In this document: positions 2,388 to 22,935 of the stretch, one piece after another
How the letters are laid out: each line of letters starts with the position of its first letter
Numbering within the stretch: position 1 is the first letter of the stretch
Source: Acidobacteriota bacterium
GTDB taxonomy: Bacteria; Acidobacteriota; Terriglobia; Acidiferrales; UBA7541
Direction of reading: 5' to 3'
Assembly: GCA_003133505.1 (NCBI GenBank)
Contig: PKXT01000006.1
Coordinates: 1-33,333, forward strand
DNA: 33,333 nucleotides
Program-made: the position numbers and the translations under genes
The notes under the pieces: model-generated
Seen by the model: the letters and a program-made list of their open reading frames with translations, nothing else
Database searches by the model: none
What the model was told of the DNA's origin: nothing

Positions 2388-2699
2388 TTAAAAATTGGGA
2401 CCACAGCCGAGCAGATCGCACGGCTTGCACCAATAGGGAAGAGAGTTGGACTTTTTGGCGGCGACCTTTTTCGCCTTGTCCGCCTTGGCGCACGCGATAG
2501 CGCAACTGGCCGACATAGCGTGGCCTTTCGCCGTGCCAGGGCCCGAGCCCGGGCATTCATCGGATCCGGGATTCAGCACCGTGGGGCATTTCACGGACGC
2601 GCTCTGCGGACATCCACTGGTGGACTGCGCGTGCGCAAAGCCGATCGAGGCCAAAACCAAAACGAGAATTGCGAGTGCGTGAATCGTTACAGCTTTCAT
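2388..2699 (-). CDS. Small secreted Cys-rich protein
   Basis: Signal MKAVTIHALAILVLVLASIGFAHA. The mature part is about 78 aa with 10 Cys and a Lys-rich patch (KADKAKKVAAKK). SD-like GGAGAGG lies upstream and the gene has its own terminator. Confidence 0.75.
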   Translation of the reverse strand: MKAVTIHALAILVLVLASIGFAHAQSTSGCPQSASVKCPTVLNPGSDECPGSGPGTAKGHAMSASCAIACAKADKAKKVAAKKSNSLPYWCKPCDLLGCGPNF

Positions 2700-3530: not shown

Positions 3531-3818
3531 CTACCGGACCAGGGTGAGATCGGTTTGCGTGGTTTCTGTCTTCGTGACGCTTACCTGTACCACCGGGAGC
3601 GGCGACTGCTTCAGGTAGAACATCGTGTTCAAAATTCCGCCGCAGAGAAAAGTAATCCCCATCAGCCCGAACGTGCTGGCCACGCCGTGCGCGGTTTGCA
3701 GATTGAATTTCGCGCTGTCGATCATGGACGCGCCGAAGGCGGAAACCACGCTGGTTGCCCCGCCACCAATGAGCGCCGCGCCGAGTCCATGCAGCCATAT
3801 TTTCGTGTTGTTATTCAT
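3531..3818 (-). CDS. Holin-like membrane protein (95 aa, two predicted TM segments)
   Basis: Start taken at MNNNTK (ATG 3816..3818), overlapping the stop of the upstream gene. Hydrophobic segments: IWLHGLGAALIGGGATSVVSAFGA and VASTFGLMGITFLCGGILNTMFYL. It is the last gene of the lysis cassette. Confidence 0.6.
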   Translation of the reverse strand: MNNNTKIWLHGLGAALIGGGATSVVSAFGASMIDSAKFNLQTAHGVASTFGLMGITFLCGGILNTMFYLKQSPLPVVQVSVTKTETTQTDLTLVR

Positions 3819-4005
3819 CGTAGTAATCGCCGCCGGCCGGTTTCCTGCGCAGCCGTGGCAGGCTGGGATGTCCCGGCCAAACGGGAATCGCAATGGGAGC
3901 TTTGGCTGTCACTCCCTGGTAAGTGCTTCCCGGGGGCGCCGCCTGGGGAATGAAAGCGCAGCTCACCGAGCAGAGCGAAAGTAGTACGGCCGCGAGCGCC
4001 TTCAT
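3811..4005 (-). CDS. Small putative lipoprotein, possibly spanin-like
   Basis: MKALAAVLLSLCSVSC carries an imperfect lipobox and the mature part is Pro-rich. ATGA overlap with the endolysin stop. Confidence 0.5.
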   Translation of the reverse strand: MKALAAVLLSLCSVSCAFIPQAAPPGSTYQGVTAKAPIAIPVWPGHPSLPRLRRKPAGGDYYDE

Positions 4006-4436
4006 TGGTAGCGCGGAACGCGGGCGAAAACCTGATCGGCATAATCTTTATTGCCGCCGCCGTTCCAGAGCTCGAGGCCACGATGAGGATCGCCGCGCGC
4101 TTCGGAGATTTTCTTCACCAGGTGGACGCAGCCCCATTCGAGCCCTGTTGCGGGATCGCATAGCGCGGGGATCTTCCCGGGATATCCATCCTCGATCGCG
4201 CACTGGCCCATGAGCTGCATCAATCCCCAACTGATCGAGCAGCAGACTTCAAGCGTGGGCGGCAGATGTAATGGCGCAACATAGCGCACGCGGAACGCCG
4301 GCTCGTACCGCACCGCCCACGCGTTCCAGCCGGATTCCTGTTCAACCACAGCGCACACCAGCGGAGCCGCCAGCATGTGCCGGATCGCCGCGGCCTTGGC
4401 CAGGGCGATGAGATCTTCTTTTGTTGGAGGCGTCAT
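4002..4436 (-). CDS. Endolysin of the lytic transglycosylase / lysozyme-like (SLT) type
   Basis: Motifs VEQESGWN (catalytic Glu-Ser), GLMQLMG and WNGGGNKDYADQV are typical of SLT-domain enzymes. ATGA overlaps occur at both ends. Confidence 0.8.
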   Translation of the reverse strand: MTPPTKEDLIALAKAAAIRHMLAAPLVCAVVEQESGWNAWAVRYEPAFRVRYVAPLHLPPTLEVCCSISWGLMQLMGQCAIEDGYPGKIPALCDPATGLEWGCVHLVKKISEARGDPHRGLELWNGGGNKDYADQVFARVPRYQ

Positions 4437-4681
4437 TTCCCGTGCTCCTCGAAATCCATCCAGCGGATCGGAGGAGGCTCGCCAAGCTCGATGCCCTTGG
4501 CCCGGCAGATCTTGGTGAGCGCGTCGTAAATGTGGGGCAGGTGATTGGTGGCCATGTCGCGGACAAACTTCCGCTCGATCTCGCCATCGCGCATACGGCG
4601 GTAAAAGTATTTCAAGAGGAAGAGAACTTGGACGAGTAAAGCGAGGGCAAGCGGCGTTTCGTAGTTTTGAGCGGGGATCAT
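4433..4681 (-). CDS. Single-pass membrane protein, first gene of the lysis cassette (holin, antiholin or spanin-like)
   Basis: N-terminal TM segment TPLALALLVQVLFLLKYFY followed by a charged soluble tail. Translationally coupled to the endolysin. Confidence 0.5.
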   Translation of the reverse strand: MIPAQNYETPLALALLVQVLFLLKYFYRRMRDGEIERKFVRDMATNHLPHIYDALTKICRAKGIELGEPPPIRWMDFEEHGK

Positions 4682-4755: not shown

Positions 4756-5166
4756 TTATATGACGGTGATGGCGAAGCCGGTGGGAGCGGGAGCGGTAAT
4801 CGTCACGGTGATCGGACTCGAAACCGGCGAGCTGCTCGTGCTGCCGTTCGCGTTCACCACATTGGCCACCACTCCGTAAATGTGGGGCCCATAAGTGGGC
4901 GTGGCAATTGTCGCGGTAACCGACAATGCCGGCGCGGCGACAGTGGCTTCCGGGACGGGGTCTTGCGCGTTGCTGATGTCTTCGACGGTGAAGCTGGGAA
5001 TGCAGTTGGTGGTCTGCGTGGCCGTACATGCCGCGCCCTGCTGCCCCGCCGGCGCGAATGTGTAATCCCAGCTCGCGTTGAGCTGACTCGCGCTCGAATC
5101 GTTGCACGCCGCCAGGCATCCCGCCAGGCAGAAAAGAGCTATTAGAGCTACATATTTGAATCTCAT
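4756..5166 (-). CDS. Lipoprotein with an Ig/Fn3-like beta body
   Basis: MRFKYVALIALFCLAGC carries the canonical lipobox L-A-G-C. The mature part is Thr/Ala/Ser-rich. Confidence 0.7.
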   Translation of the reverse strand: MRFKYVALIALFCLAGCLAACNDSSASQLNASWDYTFAPAGQQGAACTATQTTNCIPSFTVEDISNAQDPVPEATVAAPALSVTATIATPTYGPHIYGVVANVVNANGSTSSSPVSSPITVTITAPAPTGFAITVI

Positions 5167-5202
5167 CGTTGAAACCTCCAGGAGATAAGTAAATTTGAAT
5201 AT

Positions 5203-6618
5203 TTAGAGATGTGCGCCGAGCATGACGAACTGGACGTGGGTGTCATCGGCGAGGATGTGCATTCCGCCGTCAGGTTGGCGCCAGCCGAGGGGCCCGACGG
5301 GATCTCCGCCGAGAAAGCTGAAGCCGGCCGTGGCGCCGCCGGCGAGCGAATAGGGGCCGACGTCGCCGGTGCGAAGGAAGAAATCGGGCGTGGAATAGAT
5401 TGTGAAGTTGTGAGCGGACGTATCGGTATTGCGCACCAACAGAATTTCGTGGCCACTCAGCGGCGCGGCATTGCCGTTGACCGTATCGGCGGCGGTGAAG
5501 CTGAGGTTTAGCGATCCGGGCGTCACGTTGCCGGCATCCGGTCCGGGGACGATAGTAACCTGGAAATTGGTGGGAGCCGACGGAGTCCACGTGGATCCCG
5601 CTGCGGCGTCGAAGGCCGCGATGGCTGCGTCATAAGCCGCGGTATAGGTTCCCGAGCAGGACGGTCCGTAGGCGATGCAGTAATCCGGCTGGGCCATTTC
5701 GACTACCTGAGCGTCGCGCGTGGCCGCAAAGGGCAGCAGGGTAACGGGCGATCCCACTGCGCAGTTGCCATCGGGGCAAGTGGGCACGGCGAACTGCAGA
5801 TCGTGAAACGCCGTAGGATATTCGGCGAACTGGGCGCACCAGTTGGCGTCGCAGGGTTGGCCGGAATTCCACGCGGTGATGTCGGAATCCTGCAGGGACT
5901 CCTTGCCGATCCCCCAGCGCGCGCCGACCGCGTACGCCGCGATGTTATTGGAAAGAGCGATGGTGGTGGAATTGCAATTCCCGCCATAGCAATCCACCCC
6001 GACCTGCACCGGGTTGCTGCCCGGGGGAACGTTGCCGATCATGGTTTCGAGGTAGGACTGATATCCGGCCTGGGTCAATCCGTAGGTGCTTTCCTCCTGA
6101 GATTTGCACGGCGGAAAAATCTCGCCTCCGGCGCCCAGCCCGACGCGAATGAAGCCGATGCGCGAATCGCTTCCATACCTGGCGATCGTCGCATTCAGAA
6201 ATCCACTGTACGCGGATATAAAAATCGGGTTGGTGAAGTTGGGCGCGTAGCCGGTGCCGGCGTTCACCGCGCAGCTCACCATGGCGGGGAGCTGGTTGAG
6301 AACGTATGAAGGGGCGGCGGTGACGCTGAGGTTATCGGCGGTCACTCCCCAAATTACCAGAGCAGTTTTTTTGCCTGCTCCGGCCCAGGGCGCGATTGCC
6401 GTTTCCACCGTGCTCCAATCCAGAGTTCCGCTGCCGTTGTCAATGGTGGACCATGGCACGAAGATTACCTGGCCCTTCACGTTGGCCTGGGAGAGCAGGT
6501 AGCCATTCGCCGTGCTGTTGGGCGTGACCGCGTACACTCCCGTCGGATACTGGGCTCGCGCGGAGGATCCGAAAAGGGTAATCAGCAGCAGGAATGAAAA
6601 CAGGAATATTTTTCGCAT
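5203..6618 (-). CDS. Secreted two-domain protein: glycoside-hydrolase-like (TIM-barrel-like) N-domain plus a C-terminal beta-sandwich paralogous to 22474..22935
   Basis: Signal MRKIFLFSFLLLITLFGSSARA. N-domain motifs VIFVPWSTIDNGSGTLDWSTVE...GKKTALVIWG and IRVGLGAGGE resemble GH42/GH5-like barrels; this is an inference. The C-domain (5203..5588) aligns with the 153-aa secreted protein. Confidence 0.6.
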   Translation of the reverse strand: MRKIFLFSFLLLITLFGSSARAQYPTGVYAVTPNSTANGYLLSQANVKGQVIFVPWSTIDNGSGTLDWSTVETAIAPWAGAGKKTALVIWGVTADNLSVTAAPSYVLNQLPAMVSCAVNAGTGYAPNFTNPIFISAYSGFLNATIARYGSDSRIGFIRVGLGAGGEIFPPCKSQEESTYGLTQAGYQSYLETMIGNVPPGSNPVQVGVDCYGGNCNSTTIALSNNIAAYAVGARWGIGKESLQDSDITAWNSGQPCDANWCAQFAEYPTAFHDLQFAVPTCPDGNCAVGSPVTLLPFAATRDAQVVEMAQPDYCIAYGPSCSGTYTAAYDAAIAAFDAAAGSTWTPSAPTNFQVTIVPGPDAGNVTPGSLNLSFTAADTVNGNAAPLSGHEILLVRNTDTSAHNFTIYSTPDFFLRTGDVGPYSLAGGATAGFSFLGGDPVGPLGWRQPDGGMHILADDTHVQFVMLGAHL

Positions 6619-6634
6619 GGGATTCGAAAAGAGC

Positions 6635-7681
6635 TCAGGCGTTCTTCGCGCGCATGTTTACGGCGGCGGCGATGATGACCGTGGTCGGCAGGATGGGAAA
6701 GAGGTAGCGATCGATCGAGCCGTCGGAACTTATCACGCCAAACTGCGCGGCGGTGAGAGCTGACGTTCCCCAGGGCGAGCCGGTATTTGGATCCACCGGA
6801 AAGAATCCCTGGCCGTCGGCATAGGAGCTGGGCGGCACGAAGGGAATCACCGGCTCGGCTGCCGCAGTCGTTCCTGAATAGCAGGCCGCCTGGATGTAGG
6901 TCGCGGCGACATCTTCGAGATAGGTGGTGTCGTCGTCCGGAGGGATTTCGTACACCTGCTTGTAGTTGGTTCCCAGGTTGGTGCCGCCGCGCGTCCAGGT
7001 GTTGGCTGTGCCGTTGGCGTCGGGCATGCCGCACAGAATCTGTATATTGCCGAGAAAGGTGTTGCAGCTTGTTCCGCTATCGTCGCAGATGTATACGTCG
7101 TCAACGAACGCCTGAAAGTTATTGGCGTCGAAGCCGAGATCCCATGAGCTGATGGTGATGGCGCCGATCAGCGGGTTGGCGGTGTACTGGGTATCCTGGT
7201 CGGCGAGGGTAAGCCACACCGTGCCGTCCACATTAAGCTGACACTGGCCGGAGATGTGGTCGATGGCGACCTTCACTTCGATGTAATGGAAGCAGCCAAA
7301 CGGCAATGCTTGCGAGGAAGGCGAACCCAGCAGGACGTACCCGGCGCTGATGCTGCCGCGATAGAACTGGAAGTGTCCGCCGGAATCGAGGAATAGACCG
7401 ACCTGCGTCTGGCTGCTATCGAGGAATTCGCAAATGGGAATCTGGATCGAATTGTTGATCACGTTCAGGGCGAAGCCCAGAAAGTAGGTTGCCTGGGTGG
7501 GAATGTTTTTCTGGACGAAGACTGGCGCACGCCCCAGCGCGTTCGCGATCTCGAGTGCCTGCGCGCCGGTGCGCACACTGGCGGACTGAATCTGCGGATA
7601 GATGCCGGAGACGCCCACCAGGTCCCACTTCTGGCTTGGATTGGTGTAGTGATCAAAGCTGTCGCAGAAGACTAGAGCCAT
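6635..7681 (-). CDS. LamG / concanavalin-like jelly-roll protein (tail-associated, hypothetical)
   Basis: N-terminus MALVFCDSFDHY with a beta-rich body, a pattern I associate with LamG-like phage proteins. No signal peptide. Confidence 0.5.
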   Translation of the reverse strand: MALVFCDSFDHYTNPSQKWDLVGVSGIYPQIQSASVRTGAQALEIANALGRAPVFVQKNIPTQATYFLGFALNVINNSIQIPICEFLDSSQTQVGLFLDSGGHFQFYRGSISAGYVLLGSPSSQALPFGCFHYIEVKVAIDHISGQCQLNVDGTVWLTLADQDTQYTANPLIGAITISSWDLGFDANNFQAFVDDVYICDDSGTSCNTFLGNIQILCGMPDANGTANTWTRGGTNLGTNYKQVYEIPPDDDTTYLEDVAATYIQAACYSGTTAAAEPVIPFVPPSSYADGQGFFPVDPNTGSPWGTSALTAAQFGVISSDGSIDRYLFPILPTTVIIAAAVNMRAKNA

Positions 7682-7712
7682 GAGGTTGTCCTGGGGAAAA
7701 ACTGGGGGGAAA

Positions 7713-9656
7713 CTATTCGGCTTCGATACGCAGGTGAAGATCGTATTGCGGGCTGCCGCTCGCTCCGGAGACAGTGGTGAGGTATTTCAGCGCCGCGCTG
7801 GTGAGCGCGTAGAACTCCTGGCAGCCGCCCAGATTGGCTCCCAGCGTGGCCAGATTGATGGTGCTGGTGGCAAACGTTTCAGCCTGAGCATTGTCGGTAT
7901 AAGTGAAGCTGAGGCTGACTGTGCCAGCGGATCCGGCCGTGGTGGTGGAGAAGTAATAGCACGCGCGGAACATTCCGTTGGCGCTCGGAGTGAGGAGGGA
8001 AGTGGATCCAATGCTGCTGGTTTGCGCGGCGGAATCCACCGGCAACGCCGCCGCATACGCGCCGCCGCGGACTTCATGACTCAGCACGACGTCGGCCGTG
8101 GCGCCGCCGGAAACCGAGTTCATGGCCTGGCCGATAATGTCTCCCGGATAAAACCAGCCCGTGCCGATGTCGCGGCAATATGCGGCAGTCCCTGTGCCAA
8201 AACTCAAGTAGTGCCCGATTGTGATGGTGTTGTCTGCCAGGCATCCACTGACGCCGTCCGCATCGAAGCCGAGATTGTAGAGCGAGGTATTTTCGCCTAG
8301 GCCGATGGCGCCAAACTGGGTGGTGGTGGCCGGCGCATCCTGAAAGGAATCGGCAGTCGTATTGAGCACCTGCAGGCGTGCAGTGTGGGTTGGGCCCACA
8401 GCCTGAAACGTGGCGATGGTCAGCGAGCCATCAAGAACTTCACGCGCGCCGAAGGATGACGAATTATTTTGGCTGTAGGCGCACCACAGGCAGTGTCCCG
8501 CCGCGTTGTTCATCCCGTATCCGTAGACGACAGCACCGCTGTTAATTTCAAAGCTGTAGCCATTTCCGGAGGTTGGTTGCAAGTCGATCATTCCTGTCGT
8601 TGAGCCGCCGCAGCAGCTTCCCTCAATAAGTTGTCCAGTACTCCGCTGGACTCCCCACCCGTTTCCGCCCATGTCGGTGGGCGTGATTCCTAGTGAGGTC
8701 GGGCCAGTCCAAAGCGCCAGCATGTTGAAAGCATTGTCAGCCGAGCGGCCGACGATGCCGCCGCCAATTCCGTTGCCGGTCGGCGCATTGTTCATGTTCA
8801 CGGTGTAAGTTCCCGCGCCGCTGTTGGTGGCAACCGCCATGCCCACCGTGTTTCCGTAGGCCGTCGGGTAAGTGCTGCTTCCGGTGTCGTGGCAATCGCC
8901 CGCGATCGTCACGGAGTTAATCACGTAGTCGCCCGCGGTGGTGCCGCCATCGAATACGCAGGAGACGCCTACGCCGGAGATCGCAATCGTGGCTGTCCCG
9001 GAAGTTCCCGCATTGGCGGTCACGATTCCAATCTGTAGCGCGATTGTATCCGTGGTCGCGGTGATGATGGCTTTCTGCACCGAAGTCATTTTTGCGAGCT
9101 TGTTTACCGTCGTGCCGGTGGTCGTGTCGTTGGGGATGGAGAGATTCACGCCCGAGCCGCTGGCGGTGACGGTGCAAGTCGAACCCAGGACGCAGCTCGT
9201 TCCATTCACGGTGGTGGATGGAGCGCAGGTGGATCCCAGCGTGCAGCTCGTCGATCCCACCGTCATGCTGGAATTGGTTAGCCCGGCATTGCCCAGCGTG
9301 CCGCTCCACACCAGCTTCACATTGCCCGCCGAGGGATTGGTGAAAGTTAGCGTCAGGCCGTTGAACGCGAGGGCATCCTGAAAATTCACCGTGCTCGAGG
9401 ACGAAAGTCCCGTGCCGTCCACCTGGAAGGTGGTGCCGCTTCCCAAGGCGAAAGCCGACCAAGTGTTTGTGGACGTGCAGCCTTCGTAGGTAGCATTGCC
9501 GCCGCTGACCAAGGAAAAGATTTGGTGCGTGTTGCACGCGCCAGGCAGCGAACCGCCGTAGCGGGTATCCGTCGCGGCGCCGCCCTGGGCGAATGCCGAT
9601 AGGCTGACAAGAAAAACGGCCGCCAGAAGGCAGCACAATGACAATAGTTTGCGCAT
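7713..9656 (-). CDS. Large Gly/Thr/Ser/Cys-rich beta protein with a Sec signal peptide (fibre-like or exported adhesin-like)
   Basis: Start taken at MRKLLSLCCLLAAVFLVSLSAFA-Q (ATG 9654..9656), because the tracked start at 9689 overlaps the upstream gene. Contains repeated GSTC motifs (VGSTSCTLGSTCAPSTTVNGTSCVLGSTCTV). Confidence 0.7.
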   Translation of the reverse strand: MRKLLSLCCLLAAVFLVSLSAFAQGGAATDTRYGGSLPGACNTHQIFSLVSGGNATYEGCTSTNTWSAFALGSGTTFQVDGTGLSSSSTVNFQDALAFNGLTLTFTNPSAGNVKLVWSGTLGNAGLTNSSMTVGSTSCTLGSTCAPSTTVNGTSCVLGSTCTVTASGSGVNLSIPNDTTTGTTVNKLAKMTSVQKAIITATTDTIALQIGIVTANAGTSGTATIAISGVGVSCVFDGGTTAGDYVINSVTIAGDCHDTGSSTYPTAYGNTVGMAVATNSGAGTYTVNMNNAPTGNGIGGGIVGRSADNAFNMLALWTGPTSLGITPTDMGGNGWGVQRSTGQLIEGSCCGGSTTGMIDLQPTSGNGYSFEINSGAVVYGYGMNNAAGHCLWCAYSQNNSSSFGAREVLDGSLTIATFQAVGPTHTARLQVLNTTADSFQDAPATTTQFGAIGLGENTSLYNLGFDADGVSGCLADNTITIGHYLSFGTGTAAYCRDIGTGWFYPGDIIGQAMNSVSGGATADVVLSHEVRGGAYAAALPVDSAAQTSSIGSTSLLTPSANGMFRACYYFSTTTAGSAGTVSLSFTYTDNAQAETFATSTINLATLGANLGGCQEFYALTSAALKYLTTVSGASGSPQYDLHLRIEAE

Positions 9657-9664
9657 GTTTTGTC

Positions 9665-10447
9665 CTAATTGTTGGCGACGACCCACCAATTGCTGCCGTC
9701 GGATTCGACAGTGAGGTACTGAAACTGGTTGGGCAGGCTCCAGGAGCTTTGCCCGTCAATGGTTTGCGAGGACGTCGTCGCGATGGTGACCGCTCCGGAT
9801 CCGGAATCCACTTTCTTGATGGTGGAGCGCTTAGCGGCAATCCCCACCGCGGTGGGCAGCGTCGCTGTGAGCGCGCTCGAACCAGTGGTGAAAAGCACGG
9901 TGTTATCGGCATCAGCCAGCGCATAGCTGACGGACTTGGCCAGCGGCGCGTTGAGCGTAGCCGCCAGAGTTCCGGAGCTCGTGACCGGCGATCCGCCGAC
10001 GCTCCATCCTGGCGGCATGCTGAGCCCGACGGATGTGACTGAGCCGCCGCCCCCTCCGCCGCCTCCGGAGATCTCAACCACATTCGTGCCGTCCGAATAG
10101 ACGAGCGCGTAGCCCGCACTCGCCAGCAGGCTGACGGTGGATCCAGGCGCGCCAGTAACTTCGACGATGATGTTGTGGCCGCCGGTGGTTTCGTTCACCA
10201 CGATAAAGGTGCGCGGCACGCTGGCCGGCAAAATCAAATGCTTGTCACCAGTGAGCGCGCCGCTCAGCACGTGGACCATGGCTGAAGCGAGCTGCGCCTG
10301 GGTCAGCGTTACATCCGAGCCGCCGGTCGGCCAGGAGGCTTCGGCATTCGTCGCCAGGTCGAGACCGAGGAACGCGGCATTGCAGGGGACTTCGCCCTGG
10401 TTCTGATTGTTGGCGATGTAGGCGAGGGCCAGGCTGGGAGTGCTCAT
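9665..10447 (-). CDS. DUF2793-like tail fibre protein with an internal domain duplication and a Gly8 linker
   Basis: The N-terminus LALAYIANNQNQGEVPCNAAFLGLD resembles the DUF2793 start seen next to GTA-type gp15 genes. Two similar beta modules are separated by GGGGGGGG. Confidence 0.6.
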   Translation of the reverse strand: MSTPSLALAYIANNQNQGEVPCNAAFLGLDLATNAEASWPTGGSDVTLTQAQLASAMVHVLSGALTGDKHLILPASVPRTFIVVNETTGGHNIIVEVTGAPGSTVSLLASAGYALVYSDGTNVVEISGGGGGGGGSVTSVGLSMPPGWSVGGSPVTSSGTLAATLNAPLAKSVSYALADADNTVLFTTGSSALTATLPTAVGIAAKRSTIKKVDSGSGAVTIATTSSQTIDGQSSWSLPNQFQYLTVESDGSNWWVVANN

Positions 10448-10456
10448 TCGTTTTCC

Positions 10457-12295
10457 TTAGAGAGTGACGGTCGCGGGAAAGCCGAGATTCACGACGGCGG
10501 ACACCTGATAAATCTTCATGTGGATCGAACTCTGCACCGAGCCGAAGTCGGCGGTTTGGTCCGCGGCGGAATAGACGGTGGTCGGCGAAATAAGCCCGGT
10601 GATTTGCCGGACGATAACCGAGCCGTTATAAATATCCACTTCGTAGAGCTCTTCCTGTTCATAGAGCGGAACTTCGGAAAGTCCGCCCAGCCAGGTCGCT
10701 TCAGCGTCTCCACCGATGCGCGTGCGGCGCACCCAGGCGATGGTGAGATCGCCGGACATATCGCGGCTGCCGGTGACCTGGCACGGCGCGTAAGGCTTCA
10801 GGTCATTGCCAACCAGGGTGAATTGCTGGATGGAGCCGCTGGTGACGTCCTGGCCGACGGAAACGCCGCGATAGTCGTAAGGCTGATTGAGCAGCGAAGA
10901 AGGATTCTGGACGCGCTGGATTCCCGAGATCGGCACAACCACCAGGTCTCCGATCGCGTGAGTGCCGCAAGCCCACTCCGTGCCGCGGCGGCCGCGCAGC
11001 AAGCCGCTGACGGTCCACGTCCCGTCCATGTTTTGCACGGCGTTCTCGAACTGCATGATTTCCCAGCCGTTGGCGGCCGAGCCGACAATCAGCGCGTTCG
11101 CGCCATTCAGTATCTGGAGCTGGGTGACGCCGGCCAGCGCCGCTCCGGGAGTTTTCAAAGCGATGGTGAGCGAGTTGGCATTGTCCCAGACCCACGGTGA
11201 CGCGGGAGAGCCGAGAGCGTTGGTGGCATAGCCGTAATAAATCGCGTTCGGCGCGGCCGAGTCCTGGGTGTAAGTGGAATTGTCGGCCGAGCGCATGAGC
11301 GCCGCGCCTGCCCACTGCGGCAGCGTGGAGCTTAATCCGAAGTAGTAGCCCGTGCCCGAGGGATTGGAATCGCCGTCGCGCAACAGGGGAATATCGAATA
11401 GGAACGTCTGCGGCGGTCCAACATAGCGCAGCGCGGAACGTTTGAAATTGATGATCCCTGCGCCGTTGCCGACGCGGCTGCCGCCGACTCCGAAAGGCAG
11501 AGGCTTATAGATGGCGCCCTCTTCATTGAGCGTTTTGAACTTGGAGACAAAGCCCTGGCCGATTTCGTGATCGGTAATGCGCACTCCCCAGGTGATGGTC
11601 TCGTAAATAAACTGGATGACGTCGGTGGGATCGTAGAGCATCGCGACCGCGCGCCAGTCGTTGAAATCGAATGCCTGTCGGCCCACCCATTCCCAATAGA
11701 GCGCCGCGGCGGCAATGTTGATGGCCTGGTCGGGAGTCATCACCAGCGGATAGCTCAACTGCTTTTGCTGCTTGGTGGTGACGATGCGCGAGTTGCGTTT
11801 CCAGCGCTGCGAATTGGACTGGTAATCGAGCTCGATGTCGGTATAGGTGACTATGCATTCGAGCGGCAGATCCTGCTCGTCGCCGAATTGTTCGGGAATT
11901 ACTTCGGCGTCGTCACTCACCAGGCCGAGATCGCTTTCAGGAATGGTAAGTGTTTGCGCGGGGAGTCCGCGAGGGACGAATTTGAGCTGTCCGCCAGACT
12001 CGCAGGCGTCGATGAAATACGCCTCCATGATCACGCGGATGGCGTCCGCGGCCGAAGTGGCCCGGTCAATCACGTAGCCGATGCAGGTGTTATTCGGCTG
12101 CAGGTTCGCCGAAGTGAGCAGCGCGACGTTAACCTGGCTGCACTCGAGGCCCGCGCGAATGCACAGGTCCAGGATGATGCAGGCAATCCCGCACGACGCT
12201 GGGATGATGACTTCCAGCGCAACCTGTGTAAGGCGCATCCCCGGCGGGATGGGGTTCAGGACCTCGAGAGCTACCTGTGTCAGACGTTCGGACAT
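10457..12295 (-). CDS. Host-specificity protein, C-terminal portion (RcGTA gp15-like, Phage-tail_3-like)
   Basis: ILDLCIRAGLE...GYVIDRATSAADAIRVIMEAYFIDACESGGQLKFVPRG matches the central region of gp15-like proteins. It is in the same frame as 12302..13195, separated by TAA plus two codons. No SD precedes the ATG. Confidence 0.85.
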   Translation of the reverse strand: MSERLTQVALEVLNPIPPGMRLTQVALEVIIPASCGIACIILDLCIRAGLECSQVNVALLTSANLQPNNTCIGYVIDRATSAADAIRVIMEAYFIDACESGGQLKFVPRGLPAQTLTIPESDLGLVSDDAEVIPEQFGDEQDLPLECIVTYTDIELDYQSNSQRWKRNSRIVTTKQQKQLSYPLVMTPDQAINIAAAALYWEWVGRQAFDFNDWRAVAMLYDPTDVIQFIYETITWGVRITDHEIGQGFVSKFKTLNEEGAIYKPLPFGVGGSRVGNGAGIINFKRSALRYVGPPQTFLFDIPLLRDGDSNPSGTGYYFGLSSTLPQWAGAALMRSADNSTYTQDSAAPNAIYYGYATNALGSPASPWVWDNANSLTIALKTPGAALAGVTQLQILNGANALIVGSAANGWEIMQFENAVQNMDGTWTVSGLLRGRRGTEWACGTHAIGDLVVVPISGIQRVQNPSSLLNQPYDYRGVSVGQDVTSGSIQQFTLVGNDLKPYAPCQVTGSRDMSGDLTIAWVRRTRIGGDAEATWLGGLSEVPLYEQEELYEVDIYNGSVIVRQITGLISPTTVYSAADQTADFGSVQSSIHMKIYQVSAVVNLGFPATVTL

Positions 12296-12301
12296 GGAGT
12301 C

Positions 12302-13195
12302 TTAGCACTGGCACAGAATCGGGAACTGGATCAGGGCGCGAGTGTTGGGAATACGGTTGCCGAAATTGGCCAGCGGCAAATTGGCCCAGGTGAAATAGTT
12401 GAGCGCGGTGAATGCCGGAGTGATGGCTGCGCCTTCAGCCGCCTGGATGAGCGGATCGGGGAGCTGCGTTCCGGGGCCCGCGCCGGAATAAAACGTGGGC
12501 GTGCCGTAGTACTGCCTCAGCGTTTCCCATGGCGGAGGATCTGAGGGGTCCGGATCGCTGACATAGTAGGGCTCGACGACGCCCAGCGAGGTACCCGGAC
12601 CGTTCGAAACCATGCAAACCCAGATTTGTCCGGCGTCGGTGGCTTCGTCGCCAGGGTTATAGACCGTCTGGTTGTTCCACGGGCCGTAGCCGCTGGCAGT
12701 GTTCCAATAAGTCTGGTTGGTTCCCGGAATGATGTTGGTGTTGGTGAGGATGCAGATCCAGCCAACGCCGCCATAGTTCACCAGGTTGCCGGGATTGTAG
12801 AGCGTGGCCGAATTCCACGGCGGATAGAACTGCGAGGGCAGATCCTGCGCCGGGTCCGGGTTGGTGTCGTAGATTAGTTTGCTGTCGCCATAGACCTGCA
12901 GGATCGCTGCCGACCCTTCGCAGAAGGCCATGGCGATGCTGGCCTGATACAGATATCCGATAACCGAGCCGCCTCCTTTTTTCGAAGGGGTGACGGTGGT
13001 GTAAGTTATTCCGGTGGTCCAGATGAGCTGGCCGGGAATGCGTTGGAAGCCGTAGCCGAAGGGAATCGGCGCGCCTGGCGCGGAGCTGGTGATTTGATTG
13101 TTGGTGACCGGCGCGGGCGGCGCGGGCTTGTTGAGCAGCCCGCCCAGAAATCCCACTCCAATTTCGAGCGCCGGAACGATGATGAGCTGAGCCAC
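12302..13195 (-). CDS. Host-specificity protein, N-terminal portion (gp15-like) with an inserted pair of CBM5/12-like repeats
   Basis: PIPFGYGFQRIPGQLIWTT, YQASIAMAFCEG and DPLIQAAEG...LPLANFGNRIPN match the gp15-like N-domain. The insertion lies at 12596..12817. Confidence 0.8.
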   Translation of the reverse strand: MAQLIIVPALEIGVGFLGGLLNKPAPPAPVTNNQITSSAPGAPIPFGYGFQRIPGQLIWTTGITYTTVTPSKKGGGSVIGYLYQASIAMAFCEGSAAILQVYGDSKLIYDTNPDPAQDLPSQFYPPWNSATLYNPGNLVNYGGVGWICILTNTNIIPGTNQTYWNTASGYGPWNNQTVYNPGDEATDAGQIWVCMVSNGPGTSLGVVEPYYVSDPDPSDPPPWETLRQYYGTPTFYSGAGPGTQLPDPLIQAAEGAAITPAFTALNYFTWANLPLANFGNRIPNTRALIQFPILCQC

Positions 13196-22473: not shown

Positions 22474-22935
22474 TTAGCGGAGGACGTAGTAAACGGTGAA
22501 AAGGATCAGGGCGTTGGAACCCTGAAAATGGACTGTGCCGTCCGACTGCTTCCAACCCGTCACTCCGCCGAGGAAGCTAAAGCACGCGGTGGTATTGAGG
22601 GCTATGGAATAGGCGGTAATGTCCGACGTGCGGCCGTATTGGTCGGCGACCGAATTGATTGTGATGGTATAGGCGGTGGATCCGCTGGAATTCGTCGCGC
22701 AGAGCACTTCGTGGCCCGATAGCACGGTGGAATTGCCATTGGTGGTGTCCGCGGCGGTTGAGCTGATGGTCAGCGCGCCAGAGCCCACTGCAGTGGGATA
22801 CGGGCCGACGGGAGTTTGCGCGTTGATGTTGGTGGGCGATGTGGCGAATGCCGGCATGGCCGGCGCCAGCAACAGCGCGAGAGCGAGTGCGAAATATCCA
22901 GCGACGTGCAGCAGCTTACGGAATTTCTTGGTCAT
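22474..22935 (-). CDS. Secreted beta-sandwich protein embedded in the head-tail joining genes
   Basis: Signal MTKKFRKLLHVAGYFALALALLLAPAMPAFA. The body shares TAADT-NGN, LSGHE-L, FSFLGG and GW-Q-DG motifs with the C-domain of 5203..6618. Confidence 0.75.
   Translation of the reverse strand: MTKKFRKLLHVAGYFALALALLLAPAMPAFATSPTNINAQTPVGPYPTAVGSGALTISSTAADTTNGNSTVLSGHEVLCATNSSGSTAYTITINSVADQYGRTSDITAYSIALNTTACFSFLGGVTGWKQSDGTVHFQGSNALILFTVYYVLR

Follow-up and report, generated by a model that had tools for sequence, protein, structure and literature searches.

Assembly of a tailed-phage particle ends with its outermost parts, the receptor-binding proteins, and Sec delivers proteins to the periplasm only. 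We know of no tailed phage that routes virion proteins through Sec, and the literature we searched held no description of one. Here we analyse a four-gene block (A–D) in the tail-fibre slot of a 33,333-nt stretch of Acidobacteriota DNA (GCA_003133505.1, contig PKXT01000006.1; hereafter the window), in which three products open with export signals, and ask whether these proteins belong to the virion or act outside it. We interpret the block as the end of a late operon that handles receptor binding and glycan processing, in a temperate Acidobacteriota siphophage from soil. Our preferred reading, held with somewhat less than even confidence, is that the signal-bearing products are peripheral virion proteins that undergo export and periplasmic oxidation and join the particle at lysis.

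Gene layout and export signals

The block lies on the minus strand, flanked by tail-tip genes and a lysis cassette, and all four ORFs that the initial annotation placed at 4756-9656 are present there on that strand. The features used below are as follows (a slash marks a predicted cleavage site).

22474..22935, minus strand: neck-module gene p153, flanked by the head-tail adaptor and head-closure genes
10457..13195, minus strand: host-specificity (gp15/J-type) protein; phrog_4271, Phage-tail_3, Rcc01698_C; split over two ORFs (12302-13195 and 10457-12295)
9665..10447, minus strand: 260-aa tail protein; phrog_11585 and phrog_11660 'tail protein'; no signal
7713..9656, minus strand: gene A, ORF of 647 aa; Sec-signal-bearing, Cys-rich, fibre-like protein
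9588..9656, minus strand: signal peptide of A (aa 1-23); predicted SPase I site AFA/Q
8793..9143, minus strand: A-domain (aa 172-288); conserved beta-sandwich, near-invariant Cys pair, pLDDT >90
6635..7681, minus strand: gene B, ORF of 348 aa; conserved tail-region protein, cytoplasmic, no signal
5203..6618, minus strand: gene C, ORF of 471 aa; Sec signal, GH-A-like (beta/alpha)8 barrel, C-terminal beta-rich domain
6553..6618, minus strand: signal peptide of C (aa 1-22); predicted site ARA/Q
5584..6552, minus strand: barrel domain of C (aa 23-345); AF2 pLDDT >90
5206..5583, minus strand: C-terminal domain of C (aa 346-471); paralogue of p153
4756..5166, minus strand: gene D, ORF of 136 aa; lipoprotein (lipobox, GGAGG ribosome-binding site, single start)
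5116..5166, minus strand: lipoprotein signal and lipidated Cys17 of D, from the rule-based signal test
3811..4681, minus strand: lysis cassette of three ORFs, directly downstream of D
4433-4681, minus strand: 82-aa one-TM protein of the cassette (ORF sequence)
4002-4436, minus strand: SLT-type endolysin of the cassette (Pfam SLT match)
3811-4005, minus strand: Pro-rich 64-aa lipoprotein-like ORF of the cassette (ORF sequence)

A is 647 aa long, not the 648 aa first given. From the 260-aa tail gene through A, B and C to D the gaps are 8-36 nt (8 nt between the tail gene and A); the gap from D to the lysis genes, among which we infer holin and spanin roles, is 74 nt. Additional small signal-like ORFs lie past the lysis genes. 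The 260-aa tail protein, initially called DUF2793, has no Pfam match at E<=0.1 and matches PHROG tail families instead; its residues 1-132 are conserved in three related loci (L024, L032 and L092), and its C-terminal half has motifs in common with signal-bearing A-like proteins. Together with the two host-specificity ORFs and B, it would form a set of ordinary cytoplasmic tail-tip proteins.

Signals were called by an in-house rule-based test (n-h-c layout, AxA, lipobox) together with conservation in homologues, not by SignalP or LipoP. A begins MRKLLSLCCLLAAVFLVSLSAFA/QGG, C begins MRKIFLFSFLLLITLFGSSARA/QYP and D begins MRFKYVALIALFCLAGC, with the lipobox L-A-G-C17. Each has two net positive charges ahead of a 10-residue hydrophobic core (Kyte-Doolittle mean >3) and small residues at -3/-1, and A and C are predicted to carry canonical Sec signals with an AxA/Q end. 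The initial annotation had described export-type N-termini on three of the four genes, with B as the exception; its sequences are as quoted, and B is negative on every element of the test. Within the block three of four genes are signal-positive; of the 21 phage genes elsewhere in the window, one is (Fisher p = 0.007).

Whether translation might begin downstream of these segments, as had been raised at the outset, can be read from the start codons. Ahead of codon 49, A has in-frame starts at codons 1, 5 and 7 only. Its residues 24-47 are conserved in P0004, a full-length homologue that retains MRKLLS...AMA/QGG, and over the first 50 codons the two show 10 codon differences that are synonymous only. 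The next start in C is codon 28, downstream of a conserved P-T-G motif, and D has one start only, 7 nt from an upstream GGAGG. None of the three has a start that bypasses the hydrophobic segment, so the segments are translated. Across more than 60 homologues the signal is kept while its sequence drifts; two homologues of C (P0076 and P0075), for example, differ in their signals yet continue into one shared P-[ST]-G-[VI]-[YF] start.

The cysteines are consistent with passage through an oxidising compartment. Mature A has 16, in paired spacing (138/144, 155/161, 233/255, 472/494 and others), and mature C has five short-range pairs; in related loci signal-positive ORFs contain 1.93% Cys against 1.44% (p = 8e-10). 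The repeated GSTC motif first noted in A amounts to two copies, plus the variants GSTSC and GTSC. Canonical signals, the lack of alternative starts, paired cysteines and signals kept in dozens of divergent homologues together give good support for genuine export of the three proteins A, C and D, encoded where tail fibres are expected.

We consider it very improbable that the hydrophobic N-termini are non-functional, through a wrong start or by chance, and that the proteins are ordinary cytoplasmic fibres. Such an artefact would fit the use of an in-house test, which in related loci is also positive for 15-24% of the remaining ORFs that reach 150 aa, and the case of p153, whose signal-like N-terminus (aa 1-31; codon 1 with an AAGGAG ribosome-binding site) would be bypassed by initiation at an in-frame ATG at codon 27, giving a signal-less product like most p153 homologues. 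The background positives cluster beside the A-like gene, however, and the test is positive in only 4 of 82 tailspikes elsewhere and, in a Brevundimonas phage, in none of 13 proteins from the tail region; A, C and D moreover offer no alternative start, and the feature outlasts the sequence drift described above.

The A-domain and its link to tailspikes

The 72 homologues of A are mostly signal-bearing, and its A-domain shares about 50% identity with some 70 proteins. The domain is present at 43 viral and 32 genomic loci, the latter nearly all Acidobacteriota, and by this distribution it appears to be the hallmark of an Acidobacteriota (pro)phage family. On IMG/VR contigs 40 of 43 A-domain proteins have signals, compared with 3-12% of genes 4-6 positions upstream; the gene directly downstream is signal-positive in 79% of loci, and in related loci the A-like gene is regularly the first of a signal-bearing run. 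In siphophage relatives the A-domain starts 1-8 residues past the cleavage site and the C-termini behind it vary, which is the usual layout of receptor-binding proteins. One related phage (L006) has a signal-bearing A homologue alone after gp15.

The structural model of A is confident for aa 165-290 and aa 470-530 only. In BFVD, Foldseek matched it to fibre-type phage proteins (E down to 1e-9). Bdellovibrio mosaic adhesive fibres are cell-surface fibres built of phage-fibre-like modules, and one of these, Bd2133 (PDB 8ond), is the top PDB match of the model; the match is weak and not significant (E 3e-3), and the protein is cellular, not phage-encoded. No virion-attachment domain was identified in A itself, and the head-binding profile has no match in the window.

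In P22-like Acidobacteriota prophages the A-domain protein is encoded after putative ejection-protein genes, identified by size, composition and position; in two of them (L043 and L008) its start and the stop of the gene before it overlap. Here a tailspike nozzle-binding ('head-binding') domain occupies the mature N-terminus, from residues 24-37, directly behind the signal. Its profile matches solved tailspikes: 9vyg (E 4e-11), 7eeq 'tailspike head-binding domain' (1e-9) and 9vyh (2e-9). Of these, 7eeq comes from the Pam1 tailspike, where it makes the attachment to the tail nozzle (PMC13243795). The Acidobacteriota prophages share with these Pam1-type tailspikes both the N-terminal domain and the order internal/ejection proteins, tailspike, lysis genes. 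They differ in that the known domains are leaderless and start at residue 4-12 (residue 4 in the annotated tailspike of Xanthomonas phage PBR31, which has the same synteny and no signal), whereas theirs lie behind a Sec signal of 20-30 residues in proteins with 2-3% Cys. In the best 80 IMG/VR loci, 78 of 82 nozzle-binding-domain proteins lack a signal. Unlike either group, A in the window has the A-domain without the N-terminal nozzle-binding domain.

The trait extends to Tunturi_1, a cultured podovirus with a reported lytic infection cycle. Five of its proteins are signal-like: gp12, gp13, gp14 (annotated 'tail spike'), gp16 and gp17 (annotated 'virion structural'). They are encoded in one region, between the 'tail protein' and the endolysin, and such proteins take up about 12 kb of the 63-kb phage; the four large proteins have 10-32 Cys and gp16 (149 aa) has 2. 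Judged from these genomes, the signal-bearing arrangement is widespread in Acidobacteriota phages. It is not universal: L092, a relative with the same tail module, has no signal-bearing gene, so particles of that type can do without such proteins, and the Tunturi_4 siphovirus has no signal-bearing genes of this kind.

The glycosidase-like C, its putative partner D and gene B

Modelling bore out the first description of C as glycosidase-like plus beta-sandwich. Its barrel matches GH35 beta-galactosidases, GH14 beta-amylases and a mannanase in the PDB (Foldseek E ~1e-9). R158 and E307 are invariant among relatives, and G164 of a consensus GGE motif is nearly so. In Pfam searches C belongs to no GH family, and Glyco_hydro_42 gives a weak match in 6 of 63 relatives. 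On the model, C is a GH-A-type (beta/alpha)8 barrel and a putative glycosidase. The C-terminal domain is 41% identical to p153 over 121 aa (tblastn on the window, E 5e-19) and has standalone homologues of ~120 aa. C-like genes occupy three genome positions across phages, including behind the portal gene (L089) and ahead of terminase (L012), which is moron-like behaviour. D resembles the N-terminal part of P0078 (40% identity, E 1e-16); P0078 is a signal-bearing fusion of D-like and C-like proteins in a related phage.

B, initially called LamG-like, has no Pfam or PDB match in sequence searches that would confirm this. It matches phrog_2448; none of the 14 members of its family is signal-bearing, the N-terminus MxLLFCDSFDHY is conserved, and its slot behind the tip protein is the same in Brevundimonas phage Fanboy and in the siphophage locus L092.

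The main rival to attachment at lysis holds that A, C and D are late periplasmic or outer-membrane proteins that bind or cleave glycans of the infected cell's envelope, capsule or EPS, and so might ease release, destroy receptors on debris or block superinfection. We think it rather unlikely as a whole, and more plausible for C and D. It is favoured by a signal-bearing GH-A-type barrel with 790 relatives, mostly with signals or lipoboxes, by the adjoining lysis cassette, by the absence of such genes from L092 and Tunturi_4, and by one cellular A-domain protein, encoded at an EPS locus. In related loci, signal-bearing neighbours encode lectin-type (Laminin_G_3/DUF2341), Ig-like (He_PIG) and phage tail collar domains and a sub-threshold chondroitinase-B match (E 0.006), and about 5% of prophage CAZymes are reported to carry signals (PMC13507307). 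Like those soil 'AMG' glycoside hydrolases, C is a glycosidase-like prophage protein with a signal; unlike them, it lies in a structural operon, outside the Pfam GH families, and has a domain paralogous to a neck-module gene. Action outside the virion leaves unexplained, however, the nozzle-binding domain right behind the cleavage site, the lack of a signal-less receptor-binding candidate in that slot in L006 and L043, the regular placing of the A-like gene at the head of the run, and the ~12 kb that a lytic-cycle phage of 63 kb devotes to such proteins.

The two options first proposed thus divide between the genes. For C and D, an exported glycan module in place of virion structure is a reasonable fit, because C-like genes occur at three genome places and D is fused to a C-like enzyme; it is not the best reading for A. 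For A an unusual route of fibre assembly is better supported, because signal-bearing A-domain relatives carry a tailspike nozzle-binding domain and the model of A is fibre-like.

A possible route and its precedents

If peripheral virion proteins are attached at lysis, A (a fibre) and C (a GH-A-type glycosidase) would be export precursors with SPase I signals, and D, with an SPase II signal, would be the lipoprotein partner of C. They would cross the inner membrane through Sec and undergo disulfide folding in the periplasm; before lysis, trimming of glycan in the envelope or EPS is a possible role for C and D. Attachment would follow lysis: once holin, endolysin and spanin merge the compartments, A would be added to otherwise complete particles, which C might also join through its p153-like domain.

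Filamentous-phage g3p and g8p are virion proteins with cleavable Sec signals, as proposed here, and g3p has periplasmic disulfides. They are extruded at the membrane into a non-tailed virion, however, and are not added to a particle built in the cytoplasm. Sec-exported and SAR endolysins, such as Oenococcus fOg44 Lys44 and P1 Lyz, likewise use host Sec late and wait outside the cytoplasm for the holin, but are peptidoglycan hydrolases that never enter the virion; the fold of C is a GH-A barrel, not that of a lysozyme or transglycosylase, and the phage has its own SLT endolysin besides.

By analogy with SAR endolysins, uncleaved N-termini might tether the fibres to the inner membrane until the holin collapses the membrane potential, which would free the fibres and make them accessible to particles. 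Late-operon products adjoining a holin/endolysin cassette and hydrophobic cores 15-18 residues long, compatible with weak membrane anchors, fit such tethering, which we nonetheless regard as improbable: nearly all family members have small -3/-1 residues and then Gln, the SPase I cleavage signature, and the paired cysteines favour a periplasmic mature domain, which before lysis is out of reach of the cytoplasmic particle anyway.

Slightly more improbable still is that the prophage expresses the block and thereby alters the lysogen surface, the lysogenic conversion raised initially. The phage is temperate, given an integrase downstream on longer contigs; small signal-like ORFs lie past the lysis genes; and the block sits in the tail-fibre region, a known moron position for exported genes (lambda lom, phi80 cor). 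We disfavour this reading because the block shows no sigma-70-like promoter within or before it and a sole, weak terminator-like match (9634-9619, within the signal-coding region of A), because its genes are tightly spaced with the tail genes (8-36 nt), and because the lytic-cycle Tunturi_1 shares the trait. The promoter argument is weak, since the scan used the E. coli consensus. Lambda Lom and Bor, phi80/N15 Cor and T5 Llp are, like A, C and especially D (by size and lipobox), signal- or lipoprotein-signal-bearing products of phage genes beside host-specificity or fibre genes. They are small, single-domain outer-membrane proteins or lipoproteins with their own expression signals, acting in lysogens or early infection, whereas A and C belong to the late operon and are large and modular, with the character of fibres or enzymes, and D is tied to C by gene fusion.

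Late genes of the window

The window carries the late genes of a siphophage on the minus strand, in the usual siphophage order, with four open reading frames (ORFs), denoted A, B, C and D, between the tail-tip genes and the lysis cassette.

Late genes of the window, in gene order
Minus strand, first group: large terminase, portal, major capsid, head–tail adaptor, head closure, neck, terminator, tube and tape measure
22474–22935, minus strand: p153, 153 aa, between the head–tail adaptor and head-closure genes
Minus strand, second group: DUF2460, BR0599, NlpC-like, host-specificity (two ORFs) and a 260-aa tail protein
10457–13195, minus strand: host-specificity protein (gp15/J-type), two ORFs of 297 aa and 612 aa, 6 nt apart
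Minus strand, third group: A, B, C and D, then the lysis cassette
7713–9656, minus strand: A, 647 aa
6635–7681, minus strand: B, phrog_2448 family, no signal
5203–6618, minus strand: C, 471 aa
4756–5166, minus strand: D, 136 aa
3811–4681, minus strand: likely lysis cassette (82-aa protein with one transmembrane segment, SLT-type endolysin, Pro-rich 64-aa lipoprotein-like ORF)

The protein encoded by C is present in at least 36 blocks of a metagenome collection, on contigs of 33–48 kb, and the window phage is taken to be temperate because an integrase follows the lysis genes on the longer of these contigs. In species-representative genomes, loci encoding the A-domain (residues 172–288 of A) are almost all from Acidobacteriota (Terriglobia, Bryobacterales), which identifies the host phylum.

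Two assignments of the initial annotation found no support in sequence searches. B, described there as a LamG-like jelly roll, has neither a Pfam match nor a PDB profile match to Laminin_G-type or ConA-like domains, and the 260-aa gene directly upstream of A, given as DUF2793, matches no Pfam family at E ≤ 0.1 and instead matches phrog_11660 ‘tail protein’. The N terminus of the B family is conserved and signal-less in 14 of 14 members, and the slot of B after the tip protein is also kept in a Brevundimonas phage and a related siphophage. As judged from their sequences, B and the 260-aa gene encode tail proteins of the ordinary cytoplasmic kind, which would make the block a mosaic of cytoplasmic and exported products.

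The host-specificity gene is split in the same way in two related loci (L032 and L070), and we therefore set aside the idea that it is a pseudogene; in three others (L024, L092 and L006) it is a single ORF of roughly 1100–1230 aa. The N-terminal half of the protein contains weak CBM_5_12 repeats.

Export signals on A, C and D

Signals were called by a rule-based test together with comparative evidence, rather than by SignalP or LipoP. The Sec/SPase I type was defined by a positive n-region, an h-region of 8–15 or more hydrophobic residues and small residues at −3/−1, and the lipoprotein type by a lipobox, [LVI][ASTVI][GAS]C, closing a signal. The N termini of A (MRKLLSLCCLLAAVFLVSLSAFA, followed by QGG; charge +2, KD 3.12, AFA/Q, the slash marking the predicted cleavage site) and C (MRKIFLFSFLLLITLFGSSARA, followed by QYP; charge +2, KD 3.18, ARA/Q) show all the features of the first type, whereas D, which begins MRFKYVALIALFCLAGC, carries an L-A-G-C17 lipobox after MRFKYVALIALFC. 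The test found nothing resembling a signal in B. Signals are thus present on three of the four block genes, compared with 1 of 21 other phage genes in the window (Fisher p = 0.007).

These results agree with the initial annotation, which had proposed export signals on A, C and D and none on B, and they are reinforced by the homologues: the signal is kept while the sequence diverges in 40 of 43 viral A-domain proteins (43 loci on IMG/VR contigs), in 20 of 32 genomic ones and in most relatives of C. True starts downstream of the hydrophobic segments are ruled out by the start codons in all three genes. Ahead of codon 49, A has in-frame starts at codons 1, 5 and 7 only, and its residues 24–47 are conserved with the homologue P0004; the next start in C is codon 28, past a conserved P-T-G; and D has a single start, with a GGAGG site. 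The test is selective: it flagged none of the 13 tail-region proteins examined from a Brevundimonas phage and, among tailspikes elsewhere, 4 of 82. We regard an artefact as highly improbable.

Mature A contains 16 Cys, with obvious pairs at 138/144, 155/161, 233/255, 472/494 and more, and mature C contains five short-range Cys pairs, the pattern expected of proteins that fold outside the cytoplasm. Export of A, C and D is well supported by these predicted features. That the hydrophobic segments with their predicted cleavage sites serve instead as uncleaved signal-anchors is very improbable.

The A-domain and tailspikes preceded by a signal

Protein A has one full-length relative, P0004 (36–46% identity, with the same kind of signal), whose gene directly follows the 1228-aa host-specificity gene of another phage. 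About 70 other proteins match A at residues 172–288 only, with roughly 50% identity; this A-domain has a near-invariant Cys pair and is modelled at pLDDT >90, the mean for the whole of A being 63. Searched against BFVD, the model of A retrieved collagen-, Mtd-N-, S74-chaperone-, Stf-repeat- and C1q-type phage proteins (E 1e-9 to 1e-4), a modular fold of the fibre type, and its PDB matches were weak. A has no match among 50,697 GenBank phages, and sequence searches of the PDB with A, B and C yielded nothing usable. Neither the four block proteins nor the 260-aa protein match a Pfam family, and no PDB entry was matched significantly by the profiles of the A-domain (alignment A3), the p153 family (A4) or the B family (A5). 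Loci were collected with the trimmed domain alignment A3, as the whole-protein alignment A2 was too loose for this use. The slot of A, after the tail-tip and host-specificity genes and before the lysis genes, recurs in L006, L013, L024 and L032.

Three phage architectures share a layout in which cytoplasmic, Cys-poor tail genes are followed by genes for large, predicted exported, Cys-rich proteins and then by lysis genes.

Architectures sharing the layout
GTA-like siphophages: the window, L006, L013, L024 and L032
P22-like prophages: L008, L027, L030, L040 and L042–L046
Cultured podovirus Tunturi_1, an Acidobacteriota phage with a reported lytic infection cycle

Around the A-domain gene of the IMG/VR loci, 3–12% of genes at 4–6 positions upstream are signal-positive, rising to 79% at the next position downstream and 53% at the second, and signal-positive ORFs of related loci have a higher Cys content (p = 8e-10). 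In a sample of ten loci, the signal-bearing neighbours contain Laminin_G_3/DUF2341 lectin-type domains, a phage tail collar domain, a He_PIG Ig-like domain and a sub-threshold chondroitinase-B match (E 0.006). In Tunturi_1, signal-like starts occur on gp12, gp13, gp14 (annotated ‘tail spike’), gp16 and gp17 (annotated ‘virion structural’), the four large proteins having 10–32 Cys and gp16 (149 aa) having 2. PHROGs searches with the P22-like neighbours and Tunturi_1 gp11–gp36 were uninformative, PDB sequence searches with gp14 and gp17 gave no match, and signal peptides go unmentioned in the paper describing the Tunturi phages. Some phages lack the trait: neither a second cultured phage, Tunturi_4, nor the related siphophage L092 has signal-bearing genes of this kind. 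A literature search found no proteomics for any Acidobacteriota phage.

In the P22-like prophages, the A-domain gene follows three Cys-free genes that probably encode ejection proteins, given their size, composition and position, and in L043 and L008 its start codon and the stop codon of the gene before it overlap. The predicted mature N terminus of these A-domain proteins is a conserved domain of around 100 residues, and its profile (A6) matched three PDB entries, 9vyg ‘tail spike protein’ (E 4e-11), 7eeq ‘tailspike head-binding domain’ (E 1e-9) and 9vyh (E 2e-9), the next match having only E 0.2. The 7eeq domain attaches the Pam1 tailspike to the tail nozzle (PMC13243795). Pfam has no match on the P22-like tailspikes, the nozzle-binding domain being seen only by the custom profile, and A6 finds this virion-attachment domain in the P22-like relatives and not in A itself. 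In every Acidobacteriota case, the domain starts at residue 24–37, right after the predicted cleavage site. In the annotated tailspike of the Xanthomonas podophage PBR31, by contrast, the same domain begins at residue 4 without a leader, in the same gene order, and among nozzle-domain proteins from the best 80 IMG/VR loci, 78 of 82 lack a signal, with the domain starting within the first nine residues in 76 of them. This difference suggests that a complete canonical tailspike acquired a Sec signal in an Acidobacteriota phage lineage. Among siphophage relatives, L013, L024 and L032 encode proteins whose A-domain starts 1–8 residues past the cleavage site, with variable C termini behind it, as is usual for receptor-binding proteins.

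Two observations concern related genes elsewhere. In PBR31, a cultured proteobacterial phage, the gene after the signal-less tailspike (L094, 5139–5948; ‘putative structural protein’) has the signal-like N terminus MKKLIALFSLFCTSAFG. In seven Acidobacteriaceae/Terriglobia chromosomes (L056, L058, L059, L063, L066, L069 and L071), a recurrent element encodes an A-domain protein of 1600–2200 aa (signal-like in 6 of 7) and a protein of roughly 770–920 aa (signal-like in 5 of 7, with a Beta_helix match in L058), together with a large terminase, a HipA_2 kinase, DUF3037 and a portal gene. Upstream of the terminase are the fibre-like genes, and the head module contains the kinase/DUF3037 pair. As this locus holds terminase and portal genes, we rejected the view that all A-domain genes in bacterial genomes are cellular. 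Not every family member is phage-borne, however, because the A-domain protein P0027 lies in a true cellular EPS locus (L007; epimerase, He_PIG protein, acyltransferase, flippase, glycosyltransferases and Wzy).

The reading that we favour, at a probability slightly short of even, is assembly in two compartments. Heads and tails would be built in the cytoplasm, and receptor-binding fibres, tailspikes and depolymerases would be exported by Sec; we infer the steps after export, in which these exported parts would become disulfide-bonded in the periplasm and would attach to the particles only once lysis has brought the two compartments together. Addition at lysis is physically plausible. In P22 and T4, tailspikes and fibres join the particle last, and complementation in vitro shows that finished particles can still receive them. 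Two-compartment assembly would explain the signals on peripheral components only; the late-operon position, with 8–36-nt gaps, no internal promoter-like site and a single, weak terminator-like one; the phages without a signal-less candidate in the slot; and the trait in a cultured phage with a lytic infection cycle. More tentatively still, many Acidobacteriota tailed phages may assemble in this way, with A of the window, and perhaps C and p153, as examples.

Every component of this reading is already known, but the assembly route would be new for Caudoviricetes, and a full-text literature search turned up no report of tailed-phage fibres or tailspikes that carry signal peptides. If true, it would break the textbook rule that all tailed-phage parts are made and joined in the cytoplasm, and a signal peptide would no longer be grounds for excluding a protein from the virion. 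Annotation practice would be affected, given that at least one study has taken a lack of signal peptides as support for a phage origin of fibre-like proteins (PMC6199706). Tunturi_1 and its host, both in culture, offer a testable system, and the route would be relevant to engineering disulfide-requiring receptor-binding proteins.

C, D and p153

Residues 24–343 of C are modelled as a (β/α)8 barrel of the GH-A type at pLDDT >90, and the best structural matches of this barrel, at probability 1.0, are GH35 β-galactosidases, GH14 β-amylases and a GH5 mannanase; the earlier description of C as glycosidase-like is thereby upheld. In the family alignment, E307 is invariant and a GGE motif (E166 in C) is the consensus, which makes these two residues candidates for the pair of catalytic glutamates that clan GH-A enzymes have on strands 4 and 7. 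As to curated glycoside hydrolase models, C has no Pfam match and 6 of 63 relatives match Glyco_hydro_42, weakly. The relatives come from an exhaustive search, a word-index search having yielded only 2 matches, and form an uncurated family of roughly 790 proteins, mostly with signals or lipoboxes. D is 40% identical (E 1e-16) to the N-terminal part of P0078, a single signal-bearing protein in which a D-like part precedes a C-like barrel, suggesting that D and C work together. We set aside D as the o-spanin, because it is fused to a C-like enzyme elsewhere and a separate candidate, the Pro-rich 64-aa lipoprotein-like ORF, overlaps the endolysin stop. No clear i-spanin was identified in the lysis cassette at 3811–4681.

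The C-terminal 125 residues of C form a separate domain, otherwise found in standalone proteins of around 120 aa, and the neck-module protein p153 is its paralogue (41% identity, E 5e-19). The N terminus of p153 is signal-like (MTKKFRKLLHVAGYFALALALLLAPAMPAFA, followed by TSP), with an AAGGAG site upstream; initiation at codon 27, an in-frame ATG, would yield a product without the signal, as in most standalone homologues, and a signal-less homologue occupies the equivalent position in another phage. In two other signal-bearing homologues, this internal start is absent. Both the export of p153 and the fusion of its domain to an exported glycosidase would fit two-compartment assembly if p153 decorates the neck or head, and are uninformative if it is not structural.

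The initial annotation suggested an exported glycan module rather than virion structure or, alternatively, an unusual route of fibre assembly. For C and D the glycan module is the more natural reading, whereas A-type proteins, with their tailspike-domain relatives, are better read as exported virion parts. Applied to the whole block, the main rival to two-compartment assembly, in which these proteins serve as exported helpers on the envelope or EPS of the host itself and stay out of the virion, seems to us the less likely of the two, although several observations favour it. C-like genes stand ahead of the terminase in one phage (L012) and after the portal gene in another (L089), one A-domain protein belongs to a cellular EPS locus, and signals were reported on 5% of prophage CAZymes in a survey (PMC13507307). 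In L012, which shares a contig with L006, the signal-bearing barrel gene is fused to a D-like domain and lies just upstream of a methyltransferase and the terminase; in L089, it directly follows an SU10-type portal gene, with start and stop overlapping. This bears on soil-virus ecology, in which glycoside hydrolase genes of viral contigs linked to Acidobacteriota are usually taken for auxiliary metabolic genes; in the window, the glycoside-hydrolase-like C is in a structural operon, is predicted to be exported and has a domain in common with a neck-module protein.

Variable position among related phages, as expected of lysogenic-conversion morons, was found for C and D only, A keeping its slot. 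Between 4400 and 10000, a scan with an E. coli-type consensus found no promoter-like site, which is weak evidence, and the sole terminator-like match is weak and lies at 9634–9619, inside the signal-coding region of A. As an explanation for the block, morons are very improbable. A true moron region is possible at 606–2699, near the integrase end, beyond the lysis genes, where strong terminator-like hairpins lie at 2273–2250 and 1300–1284 and three small ORFs have signal-like starts.

Small signal-like ORFs beyond the lysis genes
2388–2699, minus strand: 103 aa
1392–1688, minus strand: 98 aa
606–1274, plus strand: 222 aa
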